A stretch of 33,856 nucleotides of DNA, taken from a virus. Taxonomy: Duplodnaviria > Caudoviricetes. A model generated the notes under the pieces. The model worked only from the letters and a program-made list of their open reading frames with translations, was not told the origin of the DNA and made no database searches. Positions 8,502 through 33,595 of the stretch are shown piece after piece. The position numbers were made by a program, and so were the translations under genes. Location of the stretch: the IMG/VR virus record IMGVR_UViG_3300020044_004600, positions 1 to 33,856 of that record; one strand, written 5' to 3'. Position 1 is the first letter of the stretch; every line of letters starts with the position of its first letter.

Positions 8502-10519
8502 TCCATGGCCTCCTGTGTTTTTGATTGGATGGCCTCGCTCTGGGTTTCAATCGTAGCAAGCAGACGTTTCACGATGGCAGCCTCTTCGGCCGAACCTCGT
8601 TTGGCTGTCCCAAGTTGCATCATCAAATTCCGAACCGGTGCTGATTCGTAGACGCGAGCAGCCAGGCCAATGCCGCCAGCAGCAGCCAGCGTGCCTCCAA
8701 AGCTGCCCAAGAAGCTCTGCAAGGCACTTCCAGCCACAAATGGCACTGCTTCCTGTCCTGTTGGTGTTGCCACGCCTGCCTCTCCTGCCCTGCGGGTCAG
8801 ATTAAGCACTCGGGACAAGCCTTCGACTTGCTTCAAGTCGTCACCACGGAAAAAGACGCCAATTTGTGGCTGCAAGCGTTTGATCTCTGCGCTGAACTTT
8901 TCAGGACTGAACATCTTGGTTCCGTCTTGAAGTTCAAACTTGGCTTTGTCGGCAGCTTGAGCCAAGATTGATGCGCGTGCATTGGCCCGGCCTGCTGGTG
9001 TCAATCCACTGTAAAGCTGGCGAATCTCGCTTGGTTTTTGGCCAAACAAAAGTCGATTCACAACCTCCGGTGTTTGTTCTCCAGACTTGAGAACAGACTT
9101 GAGAGAGGCCATCTTTAACTCGTTTGCAGTTTCGTTCAGGCGCTTATTGGCGACCATGAATTTATCAACATCACGGCGCTCGCCAGTTTTCTTGATGAAG
9201 TCAATCATGTCTTCACGAACAGGCCCGTAAATCGCACGCATCGCCTTTTCACCAGCATCACGCGCTGCAATACTCATTGGTCGAGCCGGGTCATCCATAA
9301 AAATCTTGGCCAACTCATCTTGGCGATAGGCTTCTATTTGGAATAGGTCACGATCCTGCACATCTGTTTTGATTTGTTGCAGTCGTTGAATTGCCTCGTC
9401 TGAACCTTCAGTACGTCGTCTGGTCAAGTCGGCAATTTGATCGTCAATGGCCGCCAATGCGCGAGGCACAGGAACAGTGCCTTTATCTGCCAAGCGATTG
9501 ATGACTTCCTTTTTCGAGTTGGCATATTTCTGGATTTCAGCAGATCTTTTCGTGGCCAAGTCCTTCATGATGTCATCGCTGAGGTTGGCCGCATCGTCTG
9601 CACCAAAGTCACGCAAGACATTTCGCACAGCATCAATCCGAGCTTGTTGCTGTTCAGCACGCAGTGGGCCAGTTCCAGCAATTGGTATGCGCTCACCAAG
9701 GCGTTGCGCTGCTTTTCCAATAAAGGTTTCTGGAGGAACTACGTCAGACGTCATGACTGGGACACCGCGACGACCTGCTTCCTCAACGATTGGCTGAACC
9801 TTGGGGGCTGTAGCTGGTGCACGTGCTGGAGCCATTGCACGGGCCGCTGCTGCGCCGCCAGCGACACCACCCAGAAGGCTGGCAGCGATCTCACCGCCAG
9901 GCGTTCCACCGGCTTCGCGGACGGCCTGTCCTGCTGCTCCTGCTCCTGCTCCGCCAGCCATTTGTGCAACCGGCTGAGCGGCCAGCAGCCTACCAACTTC
10001 ACGGGTCACTGGAGCTGCGGCTGTTTGCGCAACCCGACCAGCTGCTGCCATGCCGCCAGCACCTGACACGCCTTGAATGGCCTGATTGACCATGCGTTCA
10101 ACAGCGTCGCGTGGCTGCGGGAAGCCTGCGGCATCCAATACTTGAGCCGTGGCTTGCTGCATGGTTGGAATCTGTGCAGTGCCAGGCAGCGCAATGTTGG
10201 CAAGTCTTGTTACTGGGTCGATCACGATGCCAGCCAGACCTGTCACACCTTCGATTGCGCCACGGCCAGTCAGGCCAACTTGTCGGCCAAGCTCTTGCAA
10301 AACACCTGGTTGCTGAGGCTGTTCTGCTTGCGCTGCTGCTGCCTCTGGGAATCTAACATCAACTGCGACGTTTTGACCTGCGGCTGTTTGCACGTTGAAG
10401 GTCTGACGCTGCGAATAAGCAGCTTGCGCGGCCTGTCCGATCTGTGCATCGGTGGCATTGTCTGGGCCTTCCAGCTCAATGATGCTGCCGTCTGGTGCTT
10501 CGACTTTGTAGATAGCCAT
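8498..10519 (-). CDS. DNA ejection protein (P22 gp16-like position)
   Basis: 673 aa, Ala/Gly-rich, third gene of the ejection module. Confidence 0.75.
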   Translation of the reverse strand: MAIYKVEAPDGSIIELEGPDNATDAQIGQAAQAAYSQRQTFNVQTAAGQNVAVDVRFPEAAAAQAEQPQQPGVLQELGRQVGLTGRGAIEGVTGLAGIVIDPVTRLANIALPGTAQIPTMQQATAQVLDAAGFPQPRDAVERMVNQAIQGVSGAGGMAAAGRVAQTAAAPVTREVGRLLAAQPVAQMAGGAGAGAAGQAVREAGGTPGGEIAASLLGGVAGGAAAARAMAPARAPATAPKVQPIVEEAGRRGVPVMTSDVVPPETFIGKAAQRLGERIPIAGTGPLRAEQQQARIDAVRNVLRDFGADDAANLSDDIMKDLATKRSAEIQKYANSKKEVINRLADKGTVPVPRALAAIDDQIADLTRRRTEGSDEAIQRLQQIKTDVQDRDLFQIEAYRQDELAKIFMDDPARPMSIAARDAGEKAMRAIYGPVREDMIDFIKKTGERRDVDKFMVANKRLNETANELKMASLKSVLKSGEQTPEVVNRLLFGQKPSEIRQLYSGLTPAGRANARASILAQAADKAKFELQDGTKMFSPEKFSAEIKRLQPQIGVFFRGDDLKQVEGLSRVLNLTRRAGEAGVATPTGQEAVPFVAGSALQSFLGSFGGTLAAAGGIGLAARVYESAPVRNLMMQLGTAKRGSAEEAAIVKRLLATIETQSEAIQSKTQEAME

Positions 10520-10528
10520 GTGTTGACC

Positions 10529-11893
10529 TTATCGAATCACGCGAAAGCCTGGAGGCATGCCGGGGACGGCTGCGGCAGGCGCTGCCGGTGCTGGAGCCGC
10601 CTGAGCTGGTGCTGGAGGCGGAGCTTCTTGTGTAGCCAGTGGCTGCATGTTTTCCAAGAACATTTGTGCCGTTGGGCTTTGCTTGGCCGCCGACTCCAAA
10701 AGTTTTCGGCTTTGGTTGTACTGGGCTTTTGCTGCACGATCAGCGACACCAAAGATGGTTTTTAGTTCGCCCTTTGTAAAGTCTATGTCGCCACTTCGCG
10801 CTTTAAGCAGCAGCTTTTGCTCGCCCTCTGTGATCTGGCCTTGGCCAGTCAACATGGTGCGAGACTTCAAAGCCATTTCAGACAAGCCTTGAATCACCTC
10901 ACGGGTGGCGTTTACAGCTTTGTCACCAGTAAATCCTAAGGCGTTGGCAACGCGTGCAGTCGTAAGCCTTTGCTCGGCAAATGGGCCTGTGATTGCGTTG
11001 TCCAACGCGGCCTGGTAGCGCGGAAGATCGCTGAGTTGTGTTGCAGCTGAGTTTGCCTGGTTGTAAAGGTCAGGAACCAACTTGCCAAGCTCTGCCGCAG
11101 CCAATTTGTCGATGTTTTGCACATTGACGTTGGTAACCGCTGCTGGTGGCTTTTTAAGGATTTGCAAAGCCTGAAATGTTTTTTGCTGCTCTGGTTGCAA
11201 GTTTGCAAAGTCGATGGATTCGCGCACAGATGGTGCAAGGGTTTCGGCTTTTGTTTTTGCCAATTCTGCAACAGCCATTGGCCGTGCAAATTCAGCCTTC
11301 ACACCTGCTTCCAGCGCTTTTGCTTCAAGCTCTGCCAACTCCAATGGAGCCTTGACTGTTTTTCTACGCTCTTCCCTTGCGTCTCTTATGCCTTGATACC
11401 AGTCTTTTCCAAAAGTCGCGGCTCCTGTTAACTCGATCAACTCCGCTGCTTTTTGTGGATTGATATCGATAGTCTTGATGTAAGCCTCAAGCGCACGTTT
11501 CTGGTTTGGGTCTGTTTCTGCTTCAAAGGCCTCTTGCAGCATGGTTTTGGCAACTGGCGGGTCTGACTCCAATGCCAAAAGTGTCTGGGCAGAAAATCGC
11601 TTTGCTGTGTCCAGTTTGCGTTTTTCCATGCCTTCGCCAACCTTGGTCAAAGCCTCGAATTGCTGCTTATCGGCAAAAGGCAGGAGCTTTTCCAAGTCTT
11701 CATATGTACGGTTTGGATTCTTGAAGAACGTGTTTAATCCGGTTTGGAATTGCTGCTTTTGCTCGCGTGCCTGGGCCTGCGCTTGCATTTCAGCGCCAGC
11801 CGCTCCGATTTTGAATCCGCTTAGTGCCGCCTCAAAAGGGCTTTGCACATCAACTGCATAGTTGATCGGGCCTTGGAATGGATTGATTGCCAT
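10529..11893 (-). CDS. DNA ejection protein (P22 gp20-like position)
   Basis: 454 aa helical protein between gp7-like and gp16-like genes; Pro/Ala tail. Confidence 0.7.
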   Translation of the reverse strand: MAINPFQGPINYAVDVQSPFEAALSGFKIGAAGAEMQAQAQAREQKQQFQTGLNTFFKNPNRTYEDLEKLLPFADKQQFEALTKVGEGMEKRKLDTAKRFSAQTLLALESDPPVAKTMLQEAFEAETDPNQKRALEAYIKTIDINPQKAAELIELTGAATFGKDWYQGIRDAREERRKTVKAPLELAELEAKALEAGVKAEFARPMAVAELAKTKAETLAPSVRESIDFANLQPEQQKTFQALQILKKPPAAVTNVNVQNIDKLAAAELGKLVPDLYNQANSAATQLSDLPRYQAALDNAITGPFAEQRLTTARVANALGFTGDKAVNATREVIQGLSEMALKSRTMLTGQGQITEGEQKLLLKARSGDIDFTKGELKTIFGVADRAAKAQYNQSRKLLESAAKQSPTAQMFLENMQPLATQEAPPPAPAQAAPAPAAPAAAVPGMPPGFRVIR

Positions 11894-13264: not shown

Positions 13265-13292
13265 TGGACTTTGCAAACACGGCCTGTAAAAT
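13265..13292 (+). promoter_or_regulatory. Putative sigma70 promoter of the HNH-AP2 gene
   Basis: TGGACT-16-TAAAAT; predicted start ~13299, at the structured element. Confidence 0.5.
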
Positions 13293-13298
13293 TGCATG

Positions 13299-13343
13299 GC
13301 AGCTTACTCGACGGGGGACAGGCGATTCATCACCGCTTGCTGC
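13299..13343 (+). ncRNA. Three-stem leader RNA (C4/CI-like architecture), copy A
   Basis: GCAG..CTGC closing stem; CAGGCG-ATTCATCAC-CGCTTG hairpin; loop complementary to TGATG at 13350 and 13366. Confidence 0.6.
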
Positions 13344-13379
13344 AACTTTTGATGGTTTTCCACTCTGATGAGGTGCGAC

Positions 13380-13859
13380 ATGATCACACAAAACCGCCTG
13401 CGCGAGCTTGCGCATTACTGCCCAGAAACCGGACAATTCACCCACTTGCAGTCCAAAGGACGGAAAAAATCCGGAATGCCTGCCGGGTCGATTCGCCGCG
13501 ATGGCTACGTCTACGTCATGTTTGACGGCTTCCGTGGCATGGCGCACCAGTTCGCATGGTTGTACGTGACAGGCGAATGGCCGACGCAAGAGATTGACCA
13601 CATGGACGGCAACAAGGCCAACAATGCCTTTGCCAACCTGCGCCAGGTCAGCAGGCGTACGAACACCGAGAACAAGCACACGGCCAAGCGCACCAGCACG
13701 ACTGGGTTGCTTGGCGTGATAAGGCATCCACGTGGGTTTGTGGCTCGCATCGTCAGCAAAGGCAGGCGCACCTATCTGGGCATCTTTGAGACGCCAGAGG
13801 CCGCGCATGAAGCCTACTTGCAGGCAAAGCGAGAGTTGCATCAAGGCTGCACCATTTAG
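13380..13859 (+). CDS. HNH-AP2 homing endonuclease, antisense to the late operon
   Basis: AHQFAWLYVTGEWP..EIDHMDGNKANNAFANLR; AP2 GV...ARI...YLGIFETPEAAHEAY; GAGG RBS. Confidence 0.92.
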   Translation: MITQNRLRELAHYCPETGQFTHLQSKGRKKSGMPAGSIRRDGYVYVMFDGFRGMAHQFAWLYVTGEWPTQEIDHMDGNKANNAFANLRQVSRRTNTENKHTAKRTSTTGLLGVIRHPRGFVARIVSKGRRTYLGIFETPEAAHEAYLQAKRELHQGCTI

Positions 13860-20690: not shown

Positions 20691-21427
20691 GGGGTTTTCT
20701 CCTGTTTGCGTTTTTCACGGGCCAGTTGCATGGCAGCCAGTCGCTTGGCCCTGACTTCAGGGTTTTGCCACGAGCTCGCAGTCTTACCTGCAATTTTCTG
20801 CTTTGTCTCGTCATCACGCAATGTGCGCTTGCGAGCCTTGGCAGCCGCGCTCATCTTTGCGCGTGATTCTGGCGTTCTCTCATAGGCTGCAAGTTTCTGC
20901 TTTGTCTCTTCAGACATCGAGTAACCAGCCGCCTTGCGTTTATCCCAAACATCCTTGATGAAATCAGAACGCTTGGAACGCTTCTCATCCGTCCATGCCG
21001 CCTTTAGTCCATCCGACACCTTCTTACGGTAATCGGCATCCTTCCAGCGTCGTGTCGAAGCATCAACCCATGAGGAAACGTCAGAGTACTTGCGTCCAGT
21101 AGCTTTGTCGGCAATTTTTGCCGCCACCTCTGGATTCTTGGATGGAGCAGTGTCACCACCATAGGCGACGTTGTACCCTTGTGGAGCCAACGTGCCTACA
21201 GCGATGATCGCTGCCTTTTCCGCTGCGTGAAGTTCGTCTTGCGTCTCAAACTCAGCAACCACCGTGATTTCAGGATCGCCATATTTGCGCCACGCACAGT
21301 GCACAGGAAGCTGGCTGCCACTTTTGACAGACCGCTTGTGCTGTGCGATACGGATGCTCATATTGCGTGCCGTTTGTCCGATGTATGCCTTGCCCGATGC
21401 AAAAACCAACTTGTACAGAATGTGCAT
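20681..21427 (-). CDS. GIY-YIG homing endonuclease with NUMOD3-like basic repeats
   Basis: ILYKL...AYIGQT...R..QH...E...GYN; SEETKQKL/PESRAKMS/DETKQKI repeats. Confidence 0.9.
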   Translation of the reverse strand: MHILYKLVFASGKAYIGQTARNMSIRIAQHKRSVKSGSQLPVHCAWRKYGDPEITVVAEFETQDELHAAEKAAIIAVGTLAPQGYNVAYGGDTAPSKNPEVAAKIADKATGRKYSDVSSWVDASTRRWKDADYRKKVSDGLKAAWTDEKRSKRSDFIKDVWDKRKAAGYSMSEETKQKLAAYERTPESRAKMSAAAKARKRTLRDDETKQKIAGKTASSWQNPEVRAKRLAAMQLAREKRKQEKTPCH

Positions 21428-21464
21428 ATCATGCTCCTGATTAACTCAAGAGCATGATAGCACA
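21421..21464 (-). promoter_or_regulatory. 19-bp RBS-sequestering hairpin with an embedded extended -10 (TGTGCTATCAT)
   Basis: tgtgc-tatcatgctc-ttga-gttaa-tcag-gagcatgata-t-gcaca. Confidence 0.85.
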
Positions 21465-31267: not shown

Positions 31268-31952
31268 TGTCGAACACCCCATCAAAAATGGCTCGGGAGG
31301 CTGCAGCGTGTTTGTGCTCGTTCCGACCTTGTGCGCTGCGCGTGGCGGTCTGCCTGCGCACCCAGTTTCGCCAGGTTGCTGGCCAATCGGTTTTGACGCC
31401 CTTCTGGCCAGGCTGTGCAATCCAGTAATCCAGGAACTCAGCAAACACCGTCTGCGGGTCAAGGTCTGCGCGTTCTTGCCTGCAAAACCCAATCCACTCG
31501 TCTGGCAATTCAAAACCTGTTGGCAGGCGCGTGCCGCGCTGCGTCTTTGTTTTCTTGTGTTCTGGGTCTTGTGTTATGTGTCTTGTGTCTTGTGTAGCAT
31601 TGCTTTCGCTATGCGTTCGCATTGCATCTGCATCTTTGTGCTTACTCCACCTAGCCTTGGCGCTCTCGCTGGCCTTGGTCGACTTCTCGCCAGCCCTGGC
31701 AATCTCTTGGTCTGCCCGGTGGTTTGTCCATCCGTTCTCATTGCGAATGAAGAACTCCTGCAAAACGACCGCAATGCAGTCGGTATGCGTTCGCATCCTG
31801 ATCAGGCGTGCGATCTCGCTGGTTTCCAAAGGCAAAGGGGTTTCGTGAAGGTAGTACCAATCCAGCATGCGCCGGTAGGCTAAGTCTTCAAGGTCTGAGA
31901 GGTGTTCGGTGTGGCTTTTGTAGTCGCCAATATTGAACTGGTAATAGTGCAT
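31260..31952 (-). CDS. DUF1376/YdaU replication initiator
   Basis: MHYYQFNIGDY...HLS..E..AYRR.LD.YY; C-terminal FLDYW...DWPATWRNW. Confidence 0.9.
   Translation of the reverse strand: MHYYQFNIGDYKSHTEHLSDLEDLAYRRMLDWYYLHETPLPLETSEIARLIRMRTHTDCIAVVLQEFFIRNENGWTNHRADQEIARAGEKSTKASESAKARWSKHKDADAMRTHSESNATQDTRHITQDPEHKKTKTQRGTRLPTGFELPDEWIGFCRQERADLDPQTVFAEFLDYWIAQPGQKGVKTDWPATWRNWVRRQTATRSAQGRNEHKHAAASRAIFDGVFDNE
31554..31622. repeat. Six tandem 7-mers (CTTGTGT) plus TATGCGTTCGCAT; likely replication origin
   Basis: CTTGTGT at 31554, 31568, 31582, 31589 with two degenerate units between; 13-mer at 31610 and 31784. Confidence 0.7.
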
Positions 31953-31993
31953 TTTTTACCTTACTTCGTCGGTTTGCTTCACAAAAGAAACAG

Positions 31994-32038
31994 CGGCAGG
32001 ACGGTGAAGAATCGTCTTTTCGGGAGCTACCCTAGCCG
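31994..32038 (-). ncRNA. Three-stem leader RNA (C4/CI-like architecture), copy B
   Basis: CGGC..GCCG closing stem; GGG-TAGCT-CCC; GACG-ATTCTTCAC-CGTC; loop complementary to GTGAAG at 31977-31982. Confidence 0.65.
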
Positions 32039-32058
32039 TGTTCAACATTCACTTTACC

Positions 32059-32271
32059 TTAGGCCGCAGGCTCATTCAAGCTCTTTCGGTACATGGCACC
32101 AAACCTTTTATCAAGGGCTGGACGCCACCGAAAGGCCACGCCATTGATCAGCCAGGCCTGTACAGCCGGGCCACTTGGGGCACCGATGGCCTTGGCCACT
32201 GCCTTGTAGGAGCCGAGGCTCTTTCGGGCAAAGGCCAAGACTTGTGCATAGTATTGGTCGTCTTTGTTCAT
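32059..32271 (-). CDS. Cro-like HTH regulator, likely leaderless
   Basis: LGSYKAVAKAIG.PS.PAVQAW..NGV; TGtTACAGT 7 nt before ATG; no SD. Confidence 0.75.
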   Translation of the reverse strand: MNKDDQYYAQVLAFARKSLGSYKAVAKAIGAPSGPAVQAWLINGVAFRWRPALDKRFGAMYRKSLNEPAA

Positions 32272-32978: not shown

Positions 32979-33595
32979 TCGAGCAAGGCACACCTGAATG
33001 GTTCGCCCAGCGCCTGGGCAAGGTCACCGCAAGCCGGGTGGCCGACATCATGGCCAAAACCAAGACCGGGGTTTCGGCCAGCCGAGGCAACTACCTGGCG
33101 CAGCTGGTGGCCGAGCGCCTGACTGGCCAAAGCGCCGACACCTTCAAAAGCGGAGCCATGCAGCACGGCACCGAGACCGAGCCACAAGCGCGGATGGTGT
33201 ACGAGGCAGAGACGGGCCAGATCGTTGGCGAGGTGGCCATGATCACCCACCCGACCATCGAAATGTCGGGAGCCTCGCCGGATGGCTTGGTTGGCGAGGA
33301 TGGTCTGGTCGAGATCAAGTGCCCCAACACCAGCACGCACATTGCCACGCTGTTGGCCGACAAAGCGCCCAGCGGGTACATGGCCCAGATGCAGTGGCAA
33401 ATGGCCTGCACGGGCCGCGCCTGGTGCGACTTCGTGAGCTTTGACCCACGGATGCCCGATGACATGCAGCTGTTCATCAAGCGGGTGCCACGCGACGAAG
33501 CCCTGATCGCTGAGTACGAGGCCGAGGTGATCAAGTTCCTGGCCGAGGTGCAGGAGACGGTCGACAAGCTGATCCAGCTGCGGAGGAGCGTATGA
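32975..33595 (+). CDS. YqaJ/lambda-exonuclease family protein
   Basis: QGTPEWFAQRLGKVTAS, G.ETEP.AR, GASPDG, EIKCP. Confidence 0.95.
   Translation: MIEQGTPEWFAQRLGKVTASRVADIMAKTKTGVSASRGNYLAQLVAERLTGQSADTFKSGAMQHGTETEPQARMVYEAETGQIVGEVAMITHPTIEMSGASPDGLVGEDGLVEIKCPNTSTHIATLLADKAPSGYMAQMQWQMACTGRAWCDFVSFDPRMPDDMQLFIKRVPRDEALIAEYEAEVIKFLAEVQETVDKLIQLRRSV

Follow-up and report, generated by a model that had tools for sequence, protein, structure and literature searches.

By comparing homologous leaders we could show that two genes of a phage are each preceded by a variant of the same RNA element, in which a single variable loop has complements at two downstream sites, the second of them at the Shine–Dalgarno (SD) sequence. 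The window, that is, the whole virus record of 33,856 bases that was analysed (95% complete according to CheckV), carries copy A in front of an HNH endonuclease gene and copy B in front of a gene for a primosomal or replication-initiation protein (Table 1). Judged by sequence comparison, the element is a real, strongly covarying regulatory RNA, copy B is a member of the known Rfam family int-alpA, and copy A is a new junction variant of the same kind of element. In addition, the homologues revealed two features absent from the original prediction, a hairpin around the SD-proximal site (P4) and a self-complementary loop in the small hairpin P2. In view of this hairpin and this loop, a translation switch operated by RNA dimers is a serious hypothesis.

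Table 1. Positions of the features of both copies in the window
Feature	Position	Strand	Remark
Copy A, sigma70-like promoter TGGACT-16-TAAAAT	13265..13292	+	9/12 positions match; chance expectation for the region 0.4
Copy A, three-way junction, A-type variant: P1 GCAGC/GCTGC, J1/2 TTA, P2, J2/3 GACA, P3, J3/1 T	13299..13343	+	
Copy A, P2 hairpin CTC-GACG-GGG	13307..13316	+	GACG loop, predicted homodimer kissing loop
Copy A, P3 hairpin GGCG-ATTCATCAC-CGCT	13321..13337	+	specificity loop 13325-13333
Copy A, site 1 TGATG	13350..13354	+	downstream of a 6-nt U-rich linker
Copy A, P4 CACT-CTGATGA-GGTG	13361..13375	+	site 2 (13366-13371) within the loop; weak, 4 bp
Copy A, SD GAGG	13370..13373	+	spans P4 loop and 3' arm; ATG at 13380
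HNH endonuclease gene, 159 aa, downstream of copy A	13380..13859	+	phrog_99, E 2.5e-51
Copy B, promoter-like TTGAAT-17-TAAAGT	32051..32079	-	read from sequence
Copy B, three-way junction: J1/2 TA, J2/3 GAAAA, J3/1 CT	31994..32040	-	int-alpA member
Copy B, P2 GGG-TAGCT-CCC	32032-32022	-	
Copy B, P3 GACG-ATTCTTCAC-CGTC	32016-32000	-	
Copy B, site 1 GTGAAG	31977..31982	-	downstream of the U-run
Copy B, P4 ACC/GGT	31958..31974	-	3 bp; encloses site 2 GAAG (31967-31964)
Copy B, SD-like AAGGT	31962-31958	-	
Primosomal / replication-initiation protein gene, 230 aa	31260..31952	-	phrog_3992, E 3.6e-38; phrog_1408, E 1.2e-12

Reading the sequence bore out the layout that had been described for copy A. 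Its parts are P1, P2 with GACG, P3, a U-run, UGAUG at 13350 and 13366, GAGG and ATG, and they recur in the same arrangement in copy B on the minus strand. The P3 hairpin pattern, allowing up to two mismatches, occurs twice in the window compared with a chance mean of 0.15, and none of 100 shuffles reached two occurrences. The P3 loop of copy A, within the hairpin at 13321–13337, is AUUCAUCAC. With respect to folding energy neither copy beats its shuffles (z −0.21 to +0.80), so that the support for the element comes from covariation in homologues and not from stability. The A/U change between the two loops is mirrored in the targets, as had been proposed: loop A pairs with A1 and A2 at duplex energies of −5.4 and −6.9 and with the B sites at −3.7 and −2.4, and loop B pairs with B1 and B2 at −6.9 and −3.5 and with the A sites at −1.5 and −4.2. 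Each loop prefers its own site 1. Site 2 of copy B is weak, consisting of four Watson–Crick pairs (GAAG; the C of CGAAG is unpaired), and loop B has a slight preference for site 2 of copy A over its own site 2. In copy A the stronger of the two sites is site 2. The promoter of copy A ends 6 nt before P1. The promoter-like element before copy B overlaps the end of a small DNA-binding gene, just downstream of which the initiator gene lies, and is under the threshold of the promoter scan, which found none there.

To assemble homologues, five pattern scans with at least 120 loci each were used, in which 601 matches were listed, including copy B, and 351 unique elements were parsed. Dropped were 148 duplicates, 13 matches at locus edges, 44 lacking a three-pair P1, 12 without P3, 4 unparsed A-type matches, and 55 without an upstream TAG/P2, mostly from two loose patterns. 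Two sites were scored when the loop had two Watson–Crick complements of at least 5 nt within 60 nt after P1. The loop–target covariation expected in homologues was indeed found: 121 of the 197 distinct P3 loops have two such sites, compared with a mean of 12.9 and a maximum of 21 when loops and tails were swapped (100 permutations). As controls, the upstream window gave 9 loops and same-sense repeats gave 2. A held-out Rfam set of 19 new matches outside the patterns behaves similarly, with two sites in 12 of 19 compared with 5.5 after permutation (maximum 10) and none upstream; at 4 nt or more all 19 have two sites, a level which the permutations reach too. Under a stricter rule, which demands two sites with a common core, 136 of the 197 loops pass and 61 fail. 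Within the junction 94.4% of the P1–P3 pairs are paired and 273 cells are compensated compared with 85 in shuffled data, the letters of the junction and of the P3 stem being partly fixed by the search patterns.

In the elements that pass the stricter rule, the median distance from the end of site 2 to the start codon is 7 nt; of 112 cases, 95 show an overlap of this site with the SD and 13 have the two abutting. Furthermore, site 2 is enclosed by the P4 hairpin in 109 of the 136 two-site elements compared with 35.7 after permutation (maximum 52), with 100 different 5′ arms, and a like stem around site 1 is present in 20 of 136. Site 1 gives the longer and stronger duplex in 88 of these elements and site 2 in 43. 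A TANNNT box resembling a −10 element ends 0–12 nt before P1 in 94 of the 197 elements compared with 25 in a control window, and a −10 box directly before P1 suggests that the element forms the primary 5′ end of the transcript. One metatranscriptome contig spans the leader of a gut-phage locus (L168); it is an assembled contig, without strand, ends or level. We consider the structure and the pairing of the loop with its sites highly probable on the comparative evidence, and it is quite probable that the element controls translation initiation.

P2 was left free in two of the scans, which yielded 63 distinct P2 hairpins, 59 of them short. A 4-nt palindrome is present in 36 of these 59, comprising 11 different palindromes (GGCC 8, GATC 6, AGCT 6, GCGC 5, TGCA 4, CGCG 4, and five others once each), and GACG is found in 5 more. 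Two shuffled null models gave 10.8 and 16.4 palindromic hairpins with maxima of 23 and 28, the P2 rows being related and not independent trials; unique P2 cores are palindromic in 26 of 42 compared with 12.2 (maximum 21), and, for comparison, a palindrome is present in 18 of the 197 P3 loops. Among the 46 P2 4-mers with a complementary outer pair, the inner pair is complementary too in 38 versus 8, and this self-complementarity of the inner dinucleotide is not required by an intramolecular closing pair. The palindromes lie off the hairpin axis in 28 of 36 cases. The held-out set gives 9 palindromic loops and 7 with GACG, together 16 of 19, with the caveat that loops of this kind may be favoured by the Rfam model. 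Both the 4-nt palindrome and GACG are absent from 18 of the 59 loops, most of which retain a GC or CG core, the exceptions being CAAAA, TGACC and GACA. A repeat of the P2 palindrome elsewhere in the leader occurs in 8 of 36 cases compared with 6.2 expected, so that pairing of P2 with a second copy in cis was discarded as not enriched. Repeated selection of this feature is suggested by how many different palindromes occur.

Palindromes could also act in the DNA, as a methylation or operator site just past the transcription start, with only P3 and the two sites acting as RNA. GATC, GGCC, GCGC, AGCT and CCGG are common methyltransferase targets, many of the P2 palindromes are of this type, and the element directly follows the −10 box. 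However, one protein would not read 11 different palindromes, these are located inside a covarying RNA hairpin, and GACG is no DNA palindrome but is described as a kissing loop in RNA, so that a DNA signal is very improbable. The alternation of palindromes and GACG at one position is our main reason to predict that P2 loops homodimerise. Both solutions are described for the dimer linkage of gammaretroviruses, where GACG tetraloops form kissing homodimers of two base pairs (PMC7357161, PMC5874298); that linkage pairs genomes for packaging, whereas P2 would gate a bacterial SD, and no homology is implied. In the leaders, as expected of a kissing-loop homodimer, the loop stays self-complementary despite the change in its sequence. 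We consider an intermolecular step through P2 somewhat more probable than its absence. Two near-identical leaders of one record (L667 and L668 in G023), located before duplicated gene starts, have an extended P2 with the 6-nt palindrome TCATGA in the loop, and the same record carries an A-type copy too.

Since one loop has two exclusive partners, one of which masks the SD, a means of selecting one of them is needed, and the P2 loop hints at a second copy of the RNA in this role. We therefore put forward, tentatively and at somewhat less than even confidence, that leaders of the int-alpA type are dimer-gated translation switches, in which the monomer blocks its own SD and the P2-linked dimer turns translation on. 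This proposal is built on features obtained by sequence comparison, namely the three-way junction, the covariation of the loop with site 1 and site 2, P4, the self-complementary P2, the position just behind a promoter, and the classes of gene that follow. In the monomer, site 1 would be too near for the P3 loop, which would instead kiss the P4 loop at site 2 and lock the SD. When two RNA copies kiss by their P2 loops, the P3 loop would be captured by the usually stronger site 1 of the partner, P4 would loosen and ribosomes would load. The outcome would be a threshold blind to leaky transcription, as in a lysogen, with the nuclease or the initiator being made at high promoter activity or gene dosage.

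The direction of the switch is the least certain step; given the rest, we lean modestly to the dimer being the ON state rather than the OFF state. This direction is favoured because site 1 is stronger and is made first, so that site 2 would rarely be used if site 1 were reachable in cis. In addition, the distance of site 1 from the junction is bounded at 13–19 nt (sd 3.2) with a slope of 0.21 nt per P1 pair, compared with the ~1.5 that by our estimate would be needed for a return along P1. With a crude ruler (P1 intact, stacking of P1 and P3 assumed) site 1 is out of cis reach in 53 of 136 elements, but with 2 or 3 frayed P1 pairs only 18 or 12 are still out of reach. Against dimer-ON stand the stronger site of copy A being at its SD, the balance in nuclease leaders, in which site 1 is stronger in 14 and site 2 in 12, and the U-rich tract after P1 in 22 to 43 of 136 elements. 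A distinction between nuclease and replication leaders by their balance of sites was rejected (p 0.09). P4 is moreover weak in the window copies (4 bp and 3 bp, the own score of copy A being 9 and the family-wide threshold 10), which speaks against the dimer model.

The same parts can be arranged into negative control of the kind described for C4 and CI RNAs. In this arrangement the loop of the mRNA would be tied in cis by site 1 and the mRNA translated, until a short core RNA of ~45–50 nt with a free loop, either terminated at the U-run or left by decay, accumulates, docks by the P2 kiss, binds site 2 in P4 and shuts translation; we regard this, the main rival, as rather unlikely. The order and the usual strength of site 1 fit it, a target displayed in a hairpin loop suits recognition in trans, the P3 loop of C4 likewise has a complement beside the SD, and P1 C4 and P4 CI are described to work that way (PMC5320573, PMC4825925). 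The U-run, which the original prediction had listed, is present as 4 U in both window copies, and a U-rich tail belongs to the Rfam consensus. Across the family, P1 is followed by 8 nt with 5 or more T in 22 of 136 elements (versus 0 for A), or in 43 with the best window, so that most members lack a terminator-like tract; the terminator scan found none at either copy, and a general intrinsic terminator after P1 was rejected as a minority feature. Moreover, a cis pseudoknot needs a minimum linker only, but here the distance has an upper as well as a lower bound and changes little with the length of P1, and decay fragments from such a pseudoknot would tend to have the loop occupied.

Two mutually exclusive partners for one loop are the usual layout of a riboswitch, and the loop might accordingly flip between site 1 and site 2 within one molecule, its state being set by a protein or small ligand at the conserved junction and the self-complementarity of P2 being incidental or serving a compact loop fold. 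The strong conservation of the junction letters is in favour of such a purely cis-acting switch, since ~850 viral stretches, and ~180 genome stretches spread over many phyla, contain an exact 20-mer. The invariant letters CUAG, GAAAA and CUG are not explained by the dimer model. But the junction itself has interchangeable forms, and a cis switch would leave the 11 different palindromes and GACG at one position as well as the covariation of inner and outer pairs unexplained, which makes it an improbable reading. The dimer-gated switch is the reading which we prefer.

Concerning the family, an Rfam covariance search identified copy B (31952–32043, minus strand) as int-alpA, RF02996, with 43.4 bits over model positions 1–71 (gathering cut-off 35.8), and our own model R1, built from 73 sequences with the B junction, gave 52.7 bits. 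Like int-alpA, copy B has the three-way junction with the letters CUAG, GAAAA and CUG and a C/U-rich P3 loop. The 3′ end of the RF02996 model reaches site 1 and stops short of P4, site 2 and the SD. Copy A differs in its junction (UHA, GACA and U; CUUA, GACA and UG in the notation used for int-alpA) and has no match to RF02996 at E up to 10 in 181 bases and none to R1 at E up to 5; likewise the loci of 16 relatives gave no gathering-level match to RF02996. It has, as the B type, the three-way P1/P2/P3 junction with a variable P3 loop, a parse that 4 of 120 A-type matches fail. The A type comprises 52 unique elements with 18 distinct loops, 14 of which have two sites of at least 5 nt and all 18 two of at least 4 nt. 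We count copy A as a junction variant because A- and B-type junctions occur between identical flanks: in two loci (L168 and L411) an A module stands in place of a B module in otherwise identical 125-nt contexts. The GACG hairpin of copy A is also found on B junctions. Its P2 arm CTC contains a U–G wobble where most close relatives have CCC; a first scaffold pattern with this wobble had 0 matches, and the scaffold in the form of the relatives recurs in ~140 viral stretches.

The exact 20-mer of the B junction has the estimated numbers of occurrences given above, and the titles of the genome stretches name Pseudomonadota, Bacillota, Planctomycetota, Acidobacteriota and others. In a sample of 151 genomes from one class RF02996 matched 13, and in another 151 from one phylum it matched 1, the seed genome being counted each time. 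A third junction type was seen by eye ~90 nt before an HNH start (L153–L158), with P1, a P2 with GGCA loop, no J2/3, a P3 loop AUCGGUUA, two downstream complements and P4 over the SD; the element of L153 has no gathering-level Rfam match. In the phages of L023/L411 and L075/L168 two elements lie 470–590 nt apart, the upstream one with a swapped P2 module (GATC or GACG) and unchanged P3 loop and gene start. Where several copies share a genome, P2 and P3 both differ in six cases (G001, G002, G003, G005, G011, G019), as would mostly be the case for random pairs. Of the predicted specificity variants, the two forms of one RNA element with a loop covarying with two downstream sites, one at the SD, hold up, but strict orthogonality breaks down in some genomes, namely in G058 with four GACG copies, two of which have the same P3 loop, in G115 with two identical leaders before different genes, and in G146 with a common loop.

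The original prediction had also named the C4 antisense RNAs as a precedent. Membership in that family did not survive the search, as there is no C4 (RF01695) or c4-2 match in the window at E up to 5. C4 needs targets upstream and downstream, and two upstream sites are found in 9 of 197 loops here, which is the chance level. In 8 C4 loci, the junction strand is matched up- and downstream in 8 of 8 and the P3 loop on both sides in 4. Our element resembles the C4 RNAs of P1/P7 and the P4 CI RNA in that a closing stem encloses two hairpins, the P3 loop is variable and has its complement beside the SD, and specificity changes are mirrored in the targets, as described in PMC5320573. In contrast, the C4 RNAs carry two distinct specificity strands, for each of which there is typically an upstream and a downstream target, a P1 of ~17 bp, a GNRA/UUCG-type tetraloop in P2 and a 5′ end made by RNase P, whereas the present element has one loop with both targets downstream, a P1 with a median of 8 bp, a self-complementary P2 and a 5′ end at the promoter. 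With a loop complement at the ribosome-binding site, site 2 being over the SD in 95 of 112, the element would act in the manner of the SD-directed half of C4 without being a member of C4. On one contig (G001:C132) a C4 RNA (9029–9116) and an int-alpA RNA (11715–11780) share a strand, at a distance of 2.6 kb.

The nearest case of a prophage leader that activates its own mRNA in trans is IsrK of Gifsy-1, where, as we propose here, translation is turned on (PMC4825925). IsrK however uses a short terminated isoform and a helix exchange of ~30 nt, with no palindromic loop mentioned in the parts of that account covered here, and its Rfam model has no match in the window. Phage nucleases silenced at the ribosome-binding site are also known from the homing endonucleases of T4, whose SD hairpins are described as single ones that are relieved by promoter choice, without loop–target pairing (PMC2988022). 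Plain SD-hiding hairpins of this kind are seen on two other nuclease genes of the window and fit a default-off state: a long hairpin on the minus strand (21422–21463, −26.7 kcal/mol) buries the SD and start of a GIY-YIG-type endonuclease gene (21427–20681), and on the plus strand (1114–1153) TATAAT is followed by a hairpin over the AGGAG SD of an endonuclease gene at 1151. All told, at least five nuclease genes of this phage are free-standing. At the record ends (1–397 and 33190–33586) are two copies of one exonuclease-like gene, 91.9% identical over 397 nt; they are not an exact terminal repeat, so that two strain variants may have been joined here or the gene may truly be duplicated.

The genes downstream of the element were compared with PHROG using 89 of 125 downstream ORFs, many of them cut by locus ends, with 36 redundant-looking ones left out. 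At E 1e-8, 41 ORFs matched, 26 to nucleases (one by its second match), 13 to replication proteins and 2 to proteins of unknown function, so that 39 of the 41 are nuclease or replication genes. A Pfam search (1e-4) of the 50 ORFs that PHROG left unnamed gave 2 matches, and more than half of the downstream genes are thus without a name. Some of these are long, 250 aa to more than 310 aa (L281, L301, L305, L309, L315, L326, L328, L338 and others), with no PHROG match at E 1e-8 and no Pfam match at 1e-4, and are candidates for dosage-sensitive or toxic proteins. For the window, PHROG upheld the predicted HNH endonuclease and primosomal or replication-initiator genes, but homing of the HNH gene was not supported as originally put. 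This gene is antisense to the structural genes on either side. Its leader was seen in 24 of the 25 closest loci, one being cut off by the contig end. In 10 HNH relatives the leader is 88–96%, the coding sequence 75–96% and the upstream flank 56–100% identical, the leader being more conserved than the coding sequence in nine and equal in one. Because the leader is better conserved than the gene while the upstream flank varies, promoter, leader and HNH gene appear to move as a cassette.

Seen more generally, the leaders may represent a widespread, protein-free RNA sensor of transcript concentration, a view to which we give not quite an even chance. Leaders would homodimerise by a palindromic or GACG loop, a second loop would swap between the SD site and a decoy, and a gene-dosage or promoter-activity threshold would be set for phage nucleases and initiators, dimer module and specificity module being exchangeable. 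Literature on int-alpA amounted, in the texts covered, to a list entry and an unrelated use of the term for a gene order, with no text on function, and RF02996 was not mentioned there. The main text of PMC5737381 does not contain "alpA"; its supplement, outside this comparison, is the likeliest place for loop pairings or palindromes. Literature on palindromic or dimerising phage leaders (including PMC12990946, PMC7357161 and bioRxiv 2025.11.23.689978) gave, within the mostly open-access papers covered, no account of these features, and in the literature searched no case was found of a natural mRNA leader counting its own copies with RNA alone.

With this proposal an orphan Rfam motif gains a mechanism that is concrete and can be tested, and its reach is widened to many phyla and to one further junction type or more. 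It is unusually clear that loop, decoy and SD site covary as a threesome, alongside an SD hairpin that covaries on its own. Should dimers be driven by the P2 loop, these leaders would be natural mRNA leaders that count their own copies by RNA alone, and this would bear on how temperate phages hold nucleases and initiators silent at low copy. The natural loop variants would then be a ready set of compact riboregulators.
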